In this document: positions 2,507 through 8,761 of the stretch, piece after piece | Position numbering within the stretch: position 1 is the first letter of the stretch | How the letters are laid out: each line of letters opens with the position of its first letter | Sequence record: NC_018855.1 | DNA length: 64,000 nt | DNA from: Escherichia phage HX01 | Direction: 5' to 3' (one strand) | Translations under genes and position numbers: made by a program | Notes under the pieces: generated by a model | What the model was told of the DNA's origin: nothing | The model's input: only the letters and a program-made list of their open reading frames with translations | Database searches by the model: none

Positions 2507-3100
2507 ATGAACACACTGAAGAAACTTGTTGAATTCATCCGCACTAAACTGGGTACTGCTATGGCTAAAAATCTGACTGTAGAAGAACAGTATAACGCAG
2601 CTGCAGATAAGTTGATTACCCAAATCAAAGAACTAAAAACGGCTTCTGTTAAATCTATTAATGAAGAAAAACGTATTCGCGAACTTGTTAATGAAAAGAA
2701 CAAGCAAGCCGCTTCTAAGGAACGTGAAATTCGTAAGCTCCTGGCTGAAGGACAAGATGTTACCATGCATGCTAAGCTTGGTCTTCTGTATCGTCGAACG
2801 GCTGAACAACTTAATACAAAAGCTGACGGGTATGCCGCTATGCGAATTGAAATTGCTCGTAAGGTGGTTGAACTTGACGATGCTCGTCAGAACCTGGCAA
2901 TCAAACTCGAATACATTCGTGAAACTCGAGCAGCCAATGCCCTTGGTATCTCTACGGCTGATGATGTAATTGAAATCGCTGCACTAACTAAGGTTGATAT
3001 TGAAGACACTCTGACTCGTGTTGAAACGTTCAATGGCACTCCAACCGGTGTCGAAACCACTTCTGCTGATGTACAAGAATATATTAACTCTTTGAAATAA
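2507..3100 (+). CDS. hypothetical protein
   Basis: ORF track 2492..3100; first ATG at 2507. Confidence 0.6.
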
Positions 3101-3108
3101 AATAATAC

Positions 3109-3130
3109 GGAGGACTCCGGTCCTCCTTTT
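3109..3130 (+). terminator. rho-independent terminator
   Basis: GGAGGAC-TCCG-GTCCTCC then TTTT. Confidence 0.65.
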
Positions 3131-3149
3131 GGATAATAAAGGAGTTAAC

Positions 3150-3746
3150 ATGCGAAACCAAAATAATGATATTGACTCAATGTTCGAAGAGTTCCGAAAT
3201 AAGGTAAATCCACCTACGTCTTTAGTTGATTCATTACGATATGTTGCAACTGGACGTAAATGGTATTGGTCGTCTTCTTATGAGACAACTGAATATGCAA
3301 ATAACCGAAAATCTTTATTAGCCCCAGGTATTATGATTCATGATATCGGAGCTATTGCTAAACTAGTTGCAGACCATGATATTAGATTCACTGATTTCGT
3401 TGCTCCTACGTGGTCTGTTTGTTGTTTAAACACTGAATGGGACTATATCAGTGAACGTTCAGATGATTACATAGGCTTTAGAGACAAGCTTTTAAGGTCT
3501 AACATGTTTTATATTGATACAGAAGTTCTGGTCAATAATAAAAAATACTACTTCACTTTAATCGTCGATTCTGAAACTATGTATGAAGGCAAGCCTTTGC
3601 TTAAAAGAGTTGATGCTTTAAGTGCTATTGATGCGCTTTATGAAACCATGGTTGTTAGTCCTAATTTCACTAACAATTTAATCCTTGAGCAATTTATTAT
3701 GGAATGTAGAGAATATGTCAAAGCCAACCCTATACATGCCAAGTAA
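3150..3746 (+). CDS. hypothetical protein containing the EQFIMECR motif
   Basis: ORF track 3129..3746; ATG 3150 after SD AAAGGAG. Confidence 0.6.
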   Translation: MRNQNNDIDSMFEEFRNKVNPPTSLVDSLRYVATGRKWYWSSSYETTEYANNRKSLLAPGIMIHDIGAIAKLVADHDIRFTDFVAPTWSVCCLNTEWDYISERSDDYIGFRDKLLRSNMFYIDTEVLVNNKKYYFTLIVDSETMYEGKPLLKRVDALSAIDALYETMVVSPNFTNNLILEQFIMECREYVKANPIHAK

Positions 3747-4110
3747 GCCCTGGGCGTATGAATACAAGCGTAAATTAATCCCAAATGAAGTACTATTTGG
3801 CCCTATTTTAGCTTTAGCATTTTTAATCTTTATGATTATAGGAGCTGTTTTAGATTCCAATAAAGTTATATCGTCTGATGCAGCGTTTTCATTAATGTTC
3901 GTCGCACCACTTATTGTACCGTTTTTATTAATGCCTATTAATTGGGCAGGATATTGGCACCAAGGCCGTCATCACAGAGCCCGATTAAGAGAATGGAAAG
4001 TTCAGTGCGCAAAAGCCCAAGCTCAGTATGATGAAGCTGTTAAAAAGTATGAATATGAAGAAGCTATGGAATTCGTTAAGGAAATAAGATGCAAAAACCT
4101 CAACTCTTAA
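3715..4110 (+). CDS. small membrane protein, C-terminal EFVKEIRCKN tail
   Basis: ORF track 3685..4110; first ATG 3715; hydrophobic segments. Confidence 0.5.
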   Translation: MSKPTLYMPSKPWAYEYKRKLIPNEVLFGPILALAFLIFMIIGAVLDSNKVISSDAAFSLMFVAPLIVPFLLMPINWAGYWHQGRHHRARLREWKVQCAKAQAQYDEAVKKYEYEEAMEFVKEIRCKNLNS

Positions 4111-4451
4111 CCGTATGGCCTTCTCTTGGTGAGAACATTCTAATTTTTATTATGAGTATTGGCATGGGATTTGCCTTTGGATTAGTTGGATTTCTTATTG
4201 ACGGCGTTGTGTTAGGATTTATAGGGAACACTGGTGGATTCACAGACCAATGGCAGGACTTACGGTATACCCAAGCCTTTGCATCCATCGCATCATTTTG
4301 TACTGTAGTCTATTTTTACTACGATTTTATAAACCATAACAAGAAAAATAAAAAGGTTTACGCTTCTCAAATGATTAGTTATAATGAACTCCTAGCTAGA
4401 CGTGAAAATGAAACAATAGAAAACTTTATTAAGGAATGTAGAAATGAGTAA
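4089..4451 (+). CDS. small membrane protein, C-terminal ENFIKECRNE tail
   Basis: 120 aa, SD AAGGA, hydrophobic N-terminal half. Confidence 0.6.
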   Translation: MQKPQLLTVWPSLGENILIFIMSIGMGFAFGLVGFLIDGVVLGFIGNTGGFTDQWQDLRYTQAFASIASFCTVVYFYYDFINHNKKNKKVYASQMISYNELLARRENETIENFIKECRNE

Positions 4452-4749
4452 GATTATTGAAATTAAAGTACCAGAGTTTAATGATGCCAAATCCGCTTCA
4501 GATGCAATTTATAAACTTCTGAATCAAGCTGAACGTATCGAAGAAGAAGCAACAAAGATCGCAGACCAATATGCCGTATCATTTTCTGTAGGTGATTATG
4601 GTAGCGGTCGTACTTATTATCCTAAGGGTGAAATCGTATCCCAGTGGATGAAAGATGAAATTGAAAATAATGGTGGCGATGTTAAGCGTGAAGGTAATGG
4701 TTACGTTATTACTGAAGGTGCTTGGGTTTCGTCTTCTGCGTTGTGCTAA
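4444..4749 (+). CDS. hypothetical protein, paralog family ending W-V-SSSALC
   Basis: 101 aa; first of three tandem paralogs. Confidence 0.6.
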   Translation: MSKIIEIKVPEFNDAKSASDAIYKLLNQAERIEEEATKIADQYAVSFSVGDYGSGRTYYPKGEIVSQWMKDEIENNGGDVKREGNGYVITEGAWVSSSALC

Positions 4750-4758
4750 GGAATCATT

Positions 4759-5031
4759 ATGTCTAAAGAACAAACCGAACTGGCTGAAGCTGTAGCAAAA
4801 ATCTATGCAGCTATTGAGGCTGCCAAAGAAATTGCTGATAAACAAAACACAACATTCGACTTGTATCCAGCTTATGGTATGGGTGGAACATATCATTCAC
4901 CCGGACAGCTTAAAGCCGATCTTGAACGTTGTACAAAAAACGGCTATGCTGAATGGGCTGACGTTTACCAATACGACTACAACCTGAGCCTCGAAACTGG
5001 TGGTTGGATCGCATCTTCTCACACTTGCTAA
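4759..5031 (+). CDS. hypothetical protein, paralog family ending W-I-ASSHTC
   Basis: 90 aa. Confidence 0.6.
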   Translation: MSKEQTELAEAVAKIYAAIEAAKEIADKQNTTFDLYPAYGMGGTYHSPGQLKADLERCTKNGYAEWADVYQYDYNLSLETGGWIASSHTC

Positions 5032-5040
5032 GGAAACCAT

Positions 5041-5238
5041 ATGTCTCGTGAATTAGATTGTGCTGTACGTACGGCAGTAGCTGCCCTGGAAAACCTGTTC
5101 CAAATTGCAACAGAAGAACGCGAAGAAGTTACATTGTGGATTGAAGATAACGCAGGTCTGAATCTCCAGAACGCGATCTCATTATCCCACAATAGTATCA
5201 CTGTTCAAGGCTGGGTATCATCTAGTTATTCTTGCTAA
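5041..5238 (+). CDS. hypothetical protein, paralog family ending W-V-SSSYSC
   Basis: 65 aa. Confidence 0.55.
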   Translation: MSRELDCAVRTAVAALENLFQIATEEREEVTLWIEDNAGLNLQNAISLSHNSITVQGWVSSSYSC

Positions 5239-5242
5239 AACA

Positions 5243-5272
5243 GTTTACAACAAGATAGGGCTATGTTATAGT
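5243..5272 (+). promoter_or_regulatory. early promoter with inverted repeat around -10
   Basis: GTTTAC 5243-5248; GATAGGGCTA / TAGTCCTATC inverted repeat. Confidence 0.5.
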
Positions 5273-5300
5273 AGTCCTATCAAATTAAATGGAGTCCACA

Positions 5301-5540
5301 ATGATTTATTACGAAAGTATTGGAACCGAAGTGGTTGCTAAAACCATTACTCGTGAAAAGTTTGCAAAGATATTCGATATGCGTTATAAAAAATCTGAAC
5401 ACAAAGGCATCCGATTCGAAGATGCACACTGTACAATTTGCCCTTATAACGAAGACATAAATGGTACAATCGTTCCATTGGTAGAGGCTTCACACGATGA
5501 CCTCTGGGATGAATATGATATCGCATGTCGTGAAATTTAA
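5301..5540 (+). CDS. hypothetical protein
   Basis: ORF track 5289..5540; ATG 5301 after SD GGAG. Confidence 0.5.
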   Translation: MIYYESIGTEVVAKTITREKFAKIFDMRYKKSEHKGIRFEDAHCTICPYNEDINGTIVPLVEASHDDLWDEYDIACREI

Positions 5541-5568
5541 GTTAATGAATTAATCCGAGGAAAATATT

Positions 5569-6525
5569 ATGATGTTAGTTATTGGTTCTCGTGCACTTCA
5601 CTATCACGGTCTTATTGATTCTAACGCTATCAAAAATAGTGACTGGGACTTTATTGCAGACCAAGGTTCTTGGAATGCATTCAAAAATCAAATGATGGGT
5701 GTATATGTTCACCAAGATAACCCTGATGTCCAAGTTTTCAAATGCTTCCATAATGGACGCGAAACTCATTTTGAAGCATATATTGTTCCGGCAATCACTA
5801 ATGTCCGTGAATTAGTAGGTGAACTCACTCCTGAAGATTTCACGTCTTCTTATGACCTTTTAAAATACGCCAAGAAAAATTTGACTAAAGACCGTTTGAA
5901 CGGGTTTTACTGGGCAACTCCTGAGATATGTCTTGCAATTAAGATGTCTCATCGTTTCAAGAAAAATAATCCATTCTTTTTAAAGACTATGAACCATATT
6001 CAGTATCTTCGTGGTAAAGGTGTTACACTGAACGATGAACTTACTGAAATTATGCTAAAACGCCAGAAAGAAACCTTGAACTATGCTCACCCAGTTCTTG
6101 ACACTTCTAAAAGTGCGTTCTTTAAAGATGACATCTATACATATGACCATGATACTATTCATGAAGCCATTGCACTAACAGACCGTCCAGCGTATACATT
6201 TTATATGAAAGACGGTTCTGAAGTCATGACATCACGCGAGAAGTTCGAATCATTACCAGAAATGGTCAAATTGGCCGGTGTATACGAAGAATCATGTGTA
6301 CTAGCATTAGAACGTTCTCAAATTCCTAATGACTTTAAAATTAACCCTGAAGCCAGTTTTATGATGGCATTAGAAAAAGTATGTACAAGCATCACCTCCG
6401 GTTGGTTCCGTGAGTATGCCTGGGAAAACTACAGCAAAGTAGTAAGTATGTACCAAAGCTTAGGACATGATGATTACGTCAAACGTTTCAAACAAAATTT
6501 CCATATGGTAAAACCTTTCAAATAA
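5569..6525 (+). CDS. predicted nucleotidyltransferase-fold protein
   Basis: 318 aa; N-terminal IGSRALHYHGLIDSNAIKNSDWDF resembles the GS...DxD motif of Pol-beta-type NTases; unverified. Confidence 0.6.
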   Translation: MMLVIGSRALHYHGLIDSNAIKNSDWDFIADQGSWNAFKNQMMGVYVHQDNPDVQVFKCFHNGRETHFEAYIVPAITNVRELVGELTPEDFTSSYDLLKYAKKNLTKDRLNGFYWATPEICLAIKMSHRFKKNNPFFLKTMNHIQYLRGKGVTLNDELTEIMLKRQKETLNYAHPVLDTSKSAFFKDDIYTYDHDTIHEAIALTDRPAYTFYMKDGSEVMTSREKFESLPEMVKLAGVYEESCVLALERSQIPNDFKINPEASFMMALEKVCTSITSGWFREYAWENYSKVVSMYQSLGHDDYVKRFKQNFHMVKPFK

Positions 6526-6537
6526 CTTCACAAAACT

Positions 6538-6567
6538 GTTTACACAATTATAGGGCTATATTATAGT
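6538..6567 (+). promoter_or_regulatory. early promoter
   Basis: GTTTAC 6538-6543; near copy of the 5243 promoter. Confidence 0.5.
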
Positions 6568-6595
6568 AGTCCTATTAAAACATGAGGAGAATATT

Positions 6596-6901
6596 ATGAA
6601 ATTAACAGAAACCAACCGAATTGGTCTTTTAACAATATTTGCATCACCTTTTTACGCAGCCCTTTCTGTTGCAGTATTACAAAAGGCTTACGATATGGAT
6701 GGTGTTCCTGGTTTTGTATTCTTATCACCGTTTTTATTATTCGTCGGAGCATTGTTATTATATGCCACGACTAGTTTCGACCATAATGTCTGGGTCAATT
6801 ATAAATGTAAATTGTCTGAAGAAGAACACGCAGAAGCTCGTAAAAAAGCTATTGAATCTACCAATCTAGAAAATTTCATTAAAGAATGTCGAGGAAAATA
6901 A
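6596..6901 (+). CDS. small membrane protein, C-terminal ENFIKECRGK tail
   Basis: 101 aa, SD GAGGAG. Confidence 0.6.
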   Translation: MKLTETNRIGLLTIFASPFYAALSVAVLQKAYDMDGVPGFVFLSPFLLFVGALLLYATTSFDHNVWVNYKCKLSEEEHAEARKKAIESTNLENFIKECRGK

Positions 6902-6902
6902 T

Positions 6903-7589
6903 ATGAATAGTTCTAAAGTGTTTAATAGTCAAGCTCGTGCAGTAGGTGGTTTCGCTGGTAAAATTTCTAACGATAAAATCAAAAACGAACCTATGTTCTT
7001 CAACAGCTCGTTAGCCTTCGCTTTTGATAATGGTGGCCCTATTACTCGCAGCTTCATCATGAACCTACCAGATGATTGGAACACCGACCAGGTTGTATTT
7101 GATTCACGAGTCCACATGCTGATGCCTGGTTGGTATCCTGCTATTCCTGGATATCACCATGATGACGTACCACGCCCTGATATTCCAGTTGGTCAACACT
7201 TTATTACTGCAGGACAACCTGATTATGACAATCCTCGCTATTTGTCTGAACATATTCTTGGTCTTGTTAACGCTGATGTGTGTCCTACTCATTTTGCAAC
7301 AGGAACTGCAGAGTTCAGTCAGATTCCTGATGGCGAACTTATCTATCGTCAGTGGCACAAAGAAGTCCTCGAAAAAATTGAAAAAGGTGAACTAGAGAAA
7401 TGGGAAGCTCCAGATCGTACTCTTCTTCAGTTTGATTGGCAAACATGGCACACTGGTTCTCGTGCAATTAGTAACGGATGGCGTTGGTTCGGACGTGTAT
7501 CTCGTAATACAGACCGAGTTAAAAAGATTACCAATGAAATTCGTGTCAATGCTCAAGTTTATCTGGAATTCCCTATGGAAGGCTGGTAA
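6903..7589 (+). CDS. hypothetical protein
   Basis: 228-aa ORF, translationally coupled. Confidence 0.6.
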   Translation: MNSSKVFNSQARAVGGFAGKISNDKIKNEPMFFNSSLAFAFDNGGPITRSFIMNLPDDWNTDQVVFDSRVHMLMPGWYPAIPGYHHDDVPRPDIPVGQHFITAGQPDYDNPRYLSEHILGLVNADVCPTHFATGTAEFSQIPDGELIYRQWHKEVLEKIEKGELEKWEAPDRTLLQFDWQTWHTGSRAISNGWRWFGRVSRNTDRVKKITNEIRVNAQVYLEFPMEGW

Positions 7590-8080
7590 TGATTAACAAA
7601 ACATATTGGTCTAATATAGACGATAGCAATGAAGGTATTTCATACTATTCAGTAGATTGGACAGGATGTCCATCCTACTTAGTGAAAAATATTTGCCAAG
7701 AATTTAAAATCGACCAGCCAGCAGGTATTATCGTGAACAGATACATTAATGGATATCAACCTATCGATGAAGTAATACGAACAACTCAAGCTGAGCTTGA
7801 AAGGTTTTTCAATAAGTGCCAATGGATAACAGGATGGATTATATTTGTACCATCTATATGGTTTTTCAGTACTAAGGTGAGTTCTTTCGGTTTTGTTGAT
7901 ATTATTGCTATCTTATTAGCATCTAGTATCATAAGTGTTGTTGGTGGCATCATTGGCGGCGGTACCGCCGCCATCATTATTAATCTTGTTAAAAGTAGTT
8001 TACAAGAACATAAAGACAAGATAAAAGCCAAGAATAATGAAGTTGAACGTTTTATTACCGAATGCAGGAATTTGAGATGA
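7589..8080 (+). CDS. membrane protein with glycine-zipper TM segment, C-terminal ERFITECRNLR
   Basis: 163 aa; VVGGIIGGGTAAIII. Confidence 0.6.
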   Translation: MINKTYWSNIDDSNEGISYYSVDWTGCPSYLVKNICQEFKIDQPAGIIVNRYINGYQPIDEVIRTTQAELERFFNKCQWITGWIIFVPSIWFFSTKVSSFGFVDIIAILLASSIISVVGGIIGGGTAAIIINLVKSSLQEHKDKIKAKNNEVERFITECRNLR

Positions 8081-8313
8081 GTATAGCAATTTACATTAAA
8101 TCAGAATCATGTGATTCTTATCTGTATTCCTATGATACCGGAACGTCAGAAGAGAAAATCAAAGAAGATTTAGAAAGCGACTTGGATATGTTCCGACCTA
8201 TTTCTGATTATATGGTCCAAATATCTGATAGTGAAAGTCCGTCAACAGAAACATGTGTTGAAATTATTATACGAGATATCTTTAAACAATCATGGGACCG
8301 AGATGATGAGTAA
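8077..8313 (+). CDS. hypothetical acidic protein
   Basis: ORF track 8062..8313; ATGA overlap start at 8077. Confidence 0.5.
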   Translation: MSIAIYIKSESCDSYLYSYDTGTSEEKIKEDLESDLDMFRPISDYMVQISDSESPSTETCVEIIIRDIFKQSWDRDDE

Positions 8314-8761
8314 GAAAAATAAAGTGAAAGAACTATCAGCCGGTATTATTTTCCTTACCGAAGATAAAGAATTATTCATGGGGCGTGTAACTGGTTCTCG
8401 TCCTAAAGGTTCTTTAGCTCATCGGTGGGATATTCCTAAAGGTCGTGTCGAGCCCGGTGAATCTCCTATCGAAGCCGCTATTCGTGAATGCGAAGAAGAA
8501 ACTGGGTTTACACAATATGACCCTGCCTTCCTGAAAGACCTAGGTGAACATCATTACTCAGACAATAAGAATATTCACCTGTTCCTATATACCATCCCTG
8601 TAGAGCACGAGCAATTCAGAAATAGTGTTTGTAATTCCTATCATACATTCCCAGACGGACGTCAGATTCCTGAATTTGATGCATTCGCTTTAATTAAACC
8701 TTCTCAATGGGAATATGTAATGGGCAAATCATTATATAAGGTGCTCACTACCCTCCTATAA
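8303..8761 (+). CDS. nudE: Nudix hydrolase (T4 NudE / e.1-like)
   Basis: Nudix box GRVEPGESPIEAAIRECEEETG; lies just upstream of lysozyme as in T4; start trimmed to ATG 8303. Confidence 0.8.
   Translation: MMSKKNKVKELSAGIIFLTEDKELFMGRVTGSRPKGSLAHRWDIPKGRVEPGESPIEAAIRECEEETGFTQYDPAFLKDLGEHHYSDNKNIHLFLYTIPVEHEQFRNSVCNSYHTFPDGRQIPEFDAFALIKPSQWEYVMGKSLYKVLTTLL

Follow-up and report, generated by a model that had tools for sequence, protein, structure and literature searches.

A C-terminal tail motif shared by the e.2-e.5 early proteins of Escherichia phage HX01 is constrained as protein at overlapping gene junctions

Why should five small phage proteins end in nearly the same six residues, and why do the codons of these residues lie against the start of the next gene? 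The question is raised by a stretch of 64,000 nucleotides (nt) of Escherichia phage HX01 (NC_018855.1), hereafter the window, in which five open reading frames (ORFs) of the + strand, located between positions 3150 and 8080, carry the motif F-[I/V]-x-E-[C/I]-R close to their C-terminus. The original prediction proposed a paralogous cytoplasmic tail, a conserved translation-initiation region, or both. In this work we conclude that both components are present, and that the constraint on the protein comes first: the tail peptide is under purifying selection, and the ribosome-binding site of the next gene is fitted around it.

The window corresponds to an RB69-like Mosigvirus, with 95-96% identity to RB69-like Mosigvirus phages across positions 3100-8400, and its + strand is the direction of early transcription. 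The five ORFs are located between e.6 and nudE/e and are named here from the annotation of the relatives as e.5, e.4, e.3, RB69ORF133c (133c) and e.2. They are direct orthologues of T4 e.2-e.5 and of RB69ORF133c, the gene order and the overlaps being identical to those of T4 and RB69, and each one matches a different PHROG along its full length (PHROGs 2607, 2604, 2330, 9798 and 2203; E 1e-50 to 1e-95). In T4, e.2 to e.6 have all been detected as early RNA and, by mass spectrometry, as protein (PMC9697503, supplements 4 and 6). The records of T4 e.2-e.5 and of RB69ORF133c describe these products just as hypothetical or predicted membrane proteins and do not include the shared tail; a prior description of the motif was not found in the literature searched, and none of its papers contains the motif strings in such a context. 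Searches of the five proteins against Pfam, NCBIfam and the PDB sequences gave nothing significant, and a word-indexed homologue search with e.3 recovered near-identical proteins only. The label "sulfurtransferase", present in some records of T4 e.3 and e.4, was traced to propagated names without support and was rejected.

The tail motif and its conservation as protein

The five ORFs and their motifs are located where the original prediction placed them. The e.5 homologue (3150-3746; phrog_2607) encodes a soluble protein of 198 amino acids with the tail QFIMECR; its motif FIMECR (3693-3710; TTT ATT ATG GAA TGT AGA) is followed by EYVKA within the C-terminal helix and ends 4 nt before the ATG of e.4, the first 32 nt of which overlap the end of e.5. 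The e.4 homologue (3715-4110), a protein with two transmembrane segments, carries the tail EFVKEIR, continued as FVKEIR-C; in its motif (4072-4089; TTC GTT AAG GAA ATA AGA) the letters AAGGAA are the Shine-Dalgarno sequence of e.3, with a 5-nt spacer, and the ATG of e.3 shares the last base of the Arg codon. The e.3 homologue (4089-4451), also a membrane protein, has the tail NFIKECR and ends in FIKECRNE; here the motif (4425-4442; TTT ATT AAG GAA TGT AGA) again provides AAGGAA as the Shine-Dalgarno sequence, this time of the ORF that starts at 4444. Compared with RB69 and other Mosigviruses, the window has a 1-nt deletion at 4440-4446 (AGAAAATG to AGAAATG) that changes the end of e.3 from RK to RNE before the stop codon and retains the next ATG. 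In the 133c homologue (6596-6901), which has two transmembrane segments and ends in FIKECRGK (tail NFIKECR), the Arg and Gly codons that close and follow the motif (6875-6892; TTC ATT AAA GAA TGT CGA) form the GAGGA sequence used by the ORF at 6903. Finally, the e.2 homologue (7589-8080) comprises a soluble N-terminal domain, two transmembrane segments and the tail RFITECR, ending in FITECRNLR; AGGAA, which includes the Arg codon of its motif (8051-8068; TTT ATT ACC GAA TGC AGG), precedes the ATG of the ORF130c homologue at 8077. In the C-terminal half of e.2, the tail is the sole invariant block.

In a six-frame translation of the 64 kb, the pattern F[IV][KTM]E[CI]R has five matches, all of them in these ORFs, on the + strand and 2-11 residues ahead of the stop, against 0.03 expected from composition and a mean of 0.065 (maximum 2) in 200 Markov shuffles, for a pattern that was picked after the data were seen. 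The complete T4 genome (169 kb) provided an independent check: F[IV].[ED]C[RK] has just three matches there, all in the orthologous e.2-e.5 cluster. Two details of the original prediction had to be amended. The residue ahead of Phe, given as E or N, fits in three of the proteins, whereas e.5 has Q and e.2 has R at this position. The location upstream of the next start holds, with a distance different from the 5-20 nt proposed: the last codon of the motif ends -1 to +10 nt before the ATG, and the motif spans from approximately 17-28 nt upstream down to the start.

A conservation confined to the nucleotide level would have a different signature from the one observed. Tails were gathered from T4 and other Tequatroviruses, RB69 and other Mosigviruses, and Dhakaviruses, and were grouped in 12 family-by-genus units; for the five conserved codons, the proportion of synonymous differences (pS) is 0.75, that is, saturated, whereas the proportion of nonsynonymous differences (pN) is 0.14, both taken as descriptive values. 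The free codon x shows a pN of 0.49. Arg is encoded by AGA, AGG, CGA, CGC or CGT, Cys by TGT or TGC, and Phe by TTT or TTC. When the copies are compared as DNA, a repeat is registered for a single pair, e.5 and e.3, in which 17 of 18 nt agree. The tail peptide is thus under purifying selection.

Carriers of the tail within and beyond the window

Hydropathy bore out the division of the carriers into four membrane proteins (e.4, e.3, 133c and e.2) and a soluble one (e.5); it supports two transmembrane segments for e.4 and 133c, and for e.3 and e.2 a minimum of one strong segment. The C-terminal regions of the four membrane proteins are rich in Lys and Arg, and the tail is therefore predicted to be cytoplasmic. 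When the five proteins were compared by BLASTP, the tails alone aligned. Profile comparison with hhalign extended this result: e.4 matches e.3 along its full length (82%), 133c matches e.2 (85%) and e.3 (83%), and within the group of transmembrane proteins the values are 78-85%, e.3, 133c and, in e.2, its C-terminal half being linked through the second transmembrane segment and the tail. In addition, e.4 and e.3 share an N-terminal M-x-K/R-P-x-L whose codons differ synonymously. These comparisons suggest that e.4 and e.3 are full-length paralogues; 133c and the C-terminal half of e.2 appear to belong with them in a group of two-transmembrane paralogues. A joint profile of the four, searched against 1.84 billion proteins, gave nine matches, exclusively in T-even phages. 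In contrast, the match of e.5 to the other four is confined to 7-16 residues of the tail. Hence the proposal of a paralogous tail fits the four membrane proteins and falls short for the soluble e.5 family, which carries the same tail and appears to be unrelated to them.

The distribution of this soluble family extends the motif well beyond the window. In nine of nine genera of the Straboviridae (Mosigvirus, Tequatrovirus, Dhakavirus, Kanagawavirus, Jiaodavirus, Kagamiyamavirus, Biquartavirus, Ishigurovirus and Pseudotevenvirus) the gene located right after e.6 encodes a soluble e.5-like protein with F-[I/V]-x-x-C-[R/K] near its C-terminus, and the general form of the motif is hydrophobic-x-x-F-[I/V]-x-x-C-[R/K]. 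Homology of the e.5 family across genera reached 96.5% in hhalign with the tail and 87% without it, and the Dhakavirus orf125 product matches the family through the tail region alone (90% with the tail, 6% without it). Among 11 e.5-like proteins, F182 and C186, both within the motif, are two of the only three invariant residues other than the start. In the soluble e.5 family of the Straboviridae no other element is conserved as well as the tail. In seven distant loci the core pattern has 18 matches where 2.8 are expected, and 12 of the 18 fall in + strand genes located downstream of e.6.

In the distant genera, 14-164 nt separate the motif of the e.5-like proteins from the next start, and as many as 28 residues separate it from the stop; it is kept at 22 nt in Dhakavirus orf125, 88 nt in Biquartavirus, 71 nt in Pseudotevenvirus, and 22 and 164 nt in Ishigurovirus. 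The motif is thus family-wide, next to e.6, and does not need an adjacent start. Kanagawavirus, Jiaodavirus and Kagamiyamavirus also have small transmembrane proteins that carry this tail or a degenerate form of it. In Klebsiella phage UTI-K1 (contig L035, 6386-6694), an ORF of 102 amino acids located between nudE and the lysozyme gene ends in LFIAKCRAK, so that in Jiaodavirus the tail occurs outside the e.6-nudE interval as well.

Shine-Dalgarno sites and recombination at the tail junctions

Because these genes are packed end to start, the 18 nt that encode the tail also serve the next cistron as its ribosome-binding region. The way in which both functions are accommodated depends on the distance to the next start. 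When the start is located at most 4 nt past the Arg codon, the Shine-Dalgarno sequence (A/G)AGGAA is formed by the free codon x and the Glu codon, and x is AAG (Lys) or GAG (Glu). When it is located 8-10 nt past the Arg codon, AGGAA or GAGGA is built from this codon (AGG, or CGA followed by GGA), and x is free (Thr, Ile, Ser or AAA-Lys). In Dhakavirus orf125, where the start is 22 nt past the Arg codon, the Shine-Dalgarno sequence lies outside the motif, x is free and the motif is still kept. At the five junctions of the window, the spacers are 5-10 nt and the duplex energies -3.3 to -6.1 kcal/mol; no RNA structure was found at the tail junctions (folding z +1.4 to -1.4). It follows from this pattern that the peptide is fixed and that the Shine-Dalgarno sequence is fitted through the degenerate positions, namely the free codon x and the choice of the Arg codon.

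The tails are also used as recombination substrates, and crossovers between them delete cassettes. In the Tequatrovirus contig L015, e.3 ends in FVIDCR followed by KLK and nudE comes directly next; by alignment, the sequence is that of e.3 up to a crossover located inside TGCAGGAAA and that of e.2/nudE past it, so that e.2 was excised precisely. Of 60 records sampled, about 6 contain this e.2-less junction as a single unbroken match, among them T2, Yersinia phage PST, JE01 and UFV-AREG1. The e.4 gene, which is present or absent depending on the genus, has tails on both flanks. In the T4 reference, e.2 (102 amino acids; positions 1990-2180 of contig L003, minus strand; T4 genome 67484-67660) is a frameshifted remnant of a gene that in other Tequatroviruses is intact, with 162 amino acids; an unannotated remnant of its tail, NNFITECRKLK, still overlaps the start of nudE. 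The Mosigvirus contig L014 carries an internal deletion in e.3 that leaves its last 29 codons out of frame. The tail repeats explain why some genes are found in certain sequenced T-even phages and missing from others, one example being e.2, which T2 has lost. The saturated synonymous divergence suggests that recombination is a consequence of the repeats and not the reason for their retention.

Other repeats and a second tail were observed in the same region. Three PeSL-like copies, 65-71% identical, are located at 2146-2211, 5238-5303 and 6533-6598; each one includes an early-promoter-like GTTTACA..TATAGT within a stem-loop and ends at a gene start. The ORF134c homologue (5569-6525; Pfam DUF7277, E = 1e-27, and DUF7275, 5e-79) is located between two of them and is likely an inserted cassette. 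Within the second transmembrane segment of e.2, a perfect 20-nt GC-rich palindrome, TGGCGGCGGTACCGCCGCCA (7954-7973), encodes GGGTAA; its score is terminator-like, and in the annotation of phage mogra it is a repeat region. The three tandem paralogues at 4444-4749, 4759-5031 and 5041-5238 (phrog_899), of which Dhakavirus IME08 and Kanagawavirus PEi20 have 4-5 copies, all end in W-[V/I]-[S/A]-S-S-x-x-C-stop, and their stop codon runs directly into the next Shine-Dalgarno sequence (TGC TAA GGA A); this is a second, distinct family of C-terminal tails, Ser-rich and with a terminal Cys. The ORF at 4444-4749, intact with 101 amino acids in the window and in most relatives, corresponds in RB69 (contig L004) to two short ORFs, ORF139c and ORF138c (71 and 33 amino acids), a split that is probably due to a frameshift in RB69.

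Function of the tail and comparison with known systems

What the peptide does can be proposed from its context. We consider it likely, if by no means settled, that the tail is a short peptide motif, selected as protein within a cytoplasmic amphipathic C-terminal helix, that acts as a docking handle and whose DNA doubles as a ribosome-binding region. In the AlphaFold2 model of e.5 the tail is included in a helix (residues 177-192), and hydropathy predicts that the tails of the four membrane proteins are amphipathic (moment of approximately 2) and cytoplasmic. The helix would provide a common handle for the binding of soluble e.5 and of several membrane anchors, either to a single partner or among themselves, and the product of the adjacent e.6 gene is a candidate partner. 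The putative two-transmembrane paralogues e.4, e.3, 133c and e.2 probably gained the tail when tandem duplication copied the junction formed by the tail and the next start. The genes e.2-e.6 are conserved and expressed early genes of the best-studied phage; the shared, selected tail ties at least five of them into one putative functional group, and its F and C are the two residues to mutate first.

Several observations weigh against this interpretation. The e.5 model has only moderate confidence (predicted local distance difference test, pLDDT, 60.7) and no fold match, given that no Foldseek match to the PDB was below E = 0.03; small alarmone synthetases, the top weak matches (TM score 0.2), are not meaningful. 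The e.4 proteins carry I or S at the Cys position and have a Cys two residues later, which is forced by the ATG of e.3, and therefore the motif Cys is not universal. The small transmembrane proteins of distant genera show degenerate tails (FIRNVR, FIKEVR, WIKEMK). The paralogy detected by hhalign rests on shallow alignments of hydrophobic proteins, and the family-by-genus units are not fully independent, so that pS and pN describe the data and do not amount to a formal test.

The candidate partner, e.6 (2507-3100, + strand), is separated from e.5 by a hairpin resembling an intrinsic terminator (3109-3126, + strand), and was found in 1110 phage records of many genera. Its AlphaFold2 model is a long helical hairpin whose top Foldseek matches are all Vipp1, PspA or ESCRT-III (best E = 6e-4), and a profile of ten e.6 orthologues ranked Vipp1 first among the PDB sequences, in register, with E = 0.036. 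The best score against PspA_IM30 (PF04012), obtained in register with a Pseudotevenvirus e.6 orthologue, was 21.9 bits (E = 1.5e-4), below the gathering threshold of 33.9, and the e.6 protein of the window gave no match to PF04012; in the literature searched no paper linking PspA to T4 e.6 was found. The e.6 product is possibly a PspA/Vipp1-like protein and a candidate partner of the tails. A broader proposal, in which e.6, as a PspA/Vipp1-like member of the ESCRT-III superfamily, would belong with e.5 and a variable collection of small membrane anchors to a conserved early membrane module, all docking to e.6 through the C-terminal F-[I/V]-x-x-C-[R/K] helix and shuffled in number and kind by recombination at the tail repeats, is tentative and on the whole unlikely. 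If the link of the tails to a PspA-like e.6 were true, it would point to a control of host membrane integrity by the phage.

Other explanations of the conserved tail were considered. If the 18 nt were mainly an initiation or coupling element for the next gene, with the amino acids as a by-product, it would be expected that, as observed in the window, every motif ends -1 to +10 nt from the next ATG with a Shine-Dalgarno sequence inside or abutting it, and that the junctions are unstructured, as in good initiation regions; the near identity of the e.5 and e.3 copies and the survival of the tail DNA beside nudE in T4 despite a broken e.2 are also in line with it. Nonetheless, the amino acids are kept where synonymous sites are saturated, the Shine-Dalgarno register varies within the motif, one pair of copies alone registers as a DNA repeat, the downstream genes are mutually unrelated, and in e.5-like proteins of five genera the motif is kept 22-164 nt from any start, so that we give this explanation little credence. 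Saturation of the synonymous sites bears equally on the idea that the junctions of tail plus start were selected as linkers for cassette shuffling, a coding counterpart of PeSL with a peptide devoid of function, since selection for recombination should keep DNA identity. The precise excision of e.2 through recombination of its tail with that of e.3, with its product in T2 and the other phages named above, the tails that flank e.4, and the hyperplastic character of the region, with its PeSL-like repeats (PMC2839356, PMC4122927), speak for such linkers; however, most differences in gene content between genera have a tail at one boundary only, and the motif is invariant in e.5-like proteins that have no cassette after them, which leaves the proposal quite unlikely.

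Two further alternatives assign a different role to the peptide itself. The Cys could mark a chemical function (catalysis, metal binding or a modification site) instead of a docking helix, given that it is invariant in 11 of 11 e.5-like proteins, adjoins a conserved basic residue and is the sole conserved Cys of e.3; we find this quite improbable, because I, S, V or M take its place in several small transmembrane proteins, no enzyme fold was detected in the sequence searches or with Foldseek for e.5, and the sulfurtransferase label is a name propagated without support. Alternatively, the tail could be a cis-acting nascent-chain regulator similar to SecM and MifM, a peptide that arrests or slows the ribosome and links insertion of the transmembrane hairpin to translation of the next cistron. 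It is conserved as amino acids, 0-11 codons ahead of the stop and directly over the next start, and lies some 26-38 residues past the second transmembrane segment when the sequences are read by eye (37-50 for e.2, 133c and e.4 in the hydropathy scan, which did not resolve the second segment of e.3). Against this possibility, the motif is also present in soluble e.5 proteins, and 25-28 residues ahead of the stop; a stalled ribosome would hide, and not expose, a Shine-Dalgarno sequence and an ATG located 0-10 nt from the motif; and no hairpin sequesters these elements. We know of no likeness of the tail to known arrest sequences. Arrest was rejected as the principal explanation on account of the soluble carriers, the lack of a sequestering hairpin and the position of the start within the ribosome footprint, and we regard it as extremely improbable.

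The docking-handle interpretation, and the locus as a whole, can be compared with four known systems. With SecM and MifM the tail shares a conserved C-terminal peptide placed after transmembrane segments and just ahead of the next cistron; in contrast, here a sequestering hairpin is lacking, the next start falls within the ribosome footprint, and the motif is also found in soluble proteins and far from stops. The PeSL promoter/stem-loop cassettes mediate modular shuffling in T4-type phages (PMC2839356, PMC4122927), and the tails resemble them as short boundary repeats that act as recombination points in hyperplastic regions, with PeSL-like repeats in the same region; the tails, which are not mentioned in the PeSL paper, differ in being coding, in being conserved as amino acids and not as DNA, and in that their junctions have neither an early promoter nor a stem-loop terminator, no significant structure being found there. 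The arrangement of a hairpin gene (e.6) followed by small inner-membrane proteins with putative cytoplasmic C-terminal helices recalls the Psp-type modules (PspA/IM30 with PspB/PspC; LiaH with LiaI). It departs from them in the terminator between e.6 and e.5 and in that the interaction of e.6 with the tails is here a putative one; besides, e.4, e.3, 133c and e.2 have no similarity to PspB, PspC or LiaI, and searches of Pfam and NCBIfam did not reveal homology to these proteins or to LiaF.

A parallel for the junctions themselves is found in T4, where early operons commonly contain overlapping, translationally coupled cistrons whose Shine-Dalgarno sequences lie within the preceding ORF. In the window, likewise, stops and starts overlap or are at most 10 nt apart and the Shine-Dalgarno sequence lies in the upstream frame, the coupling being predicted from sequence; the difference is that the overlapped upstream codons themselves encode a conserved peptide. 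The component mechanisms (a shared linear motif, a Shine-Dalgarno sequence inside an upstream ORF, and repeat-mediated deletion) are all of known kinds, and their combination at the e.2-e.5 tails provides a clean example of dual coding, with a fixed peptide and a movable Shine-Dalgarno sequence.

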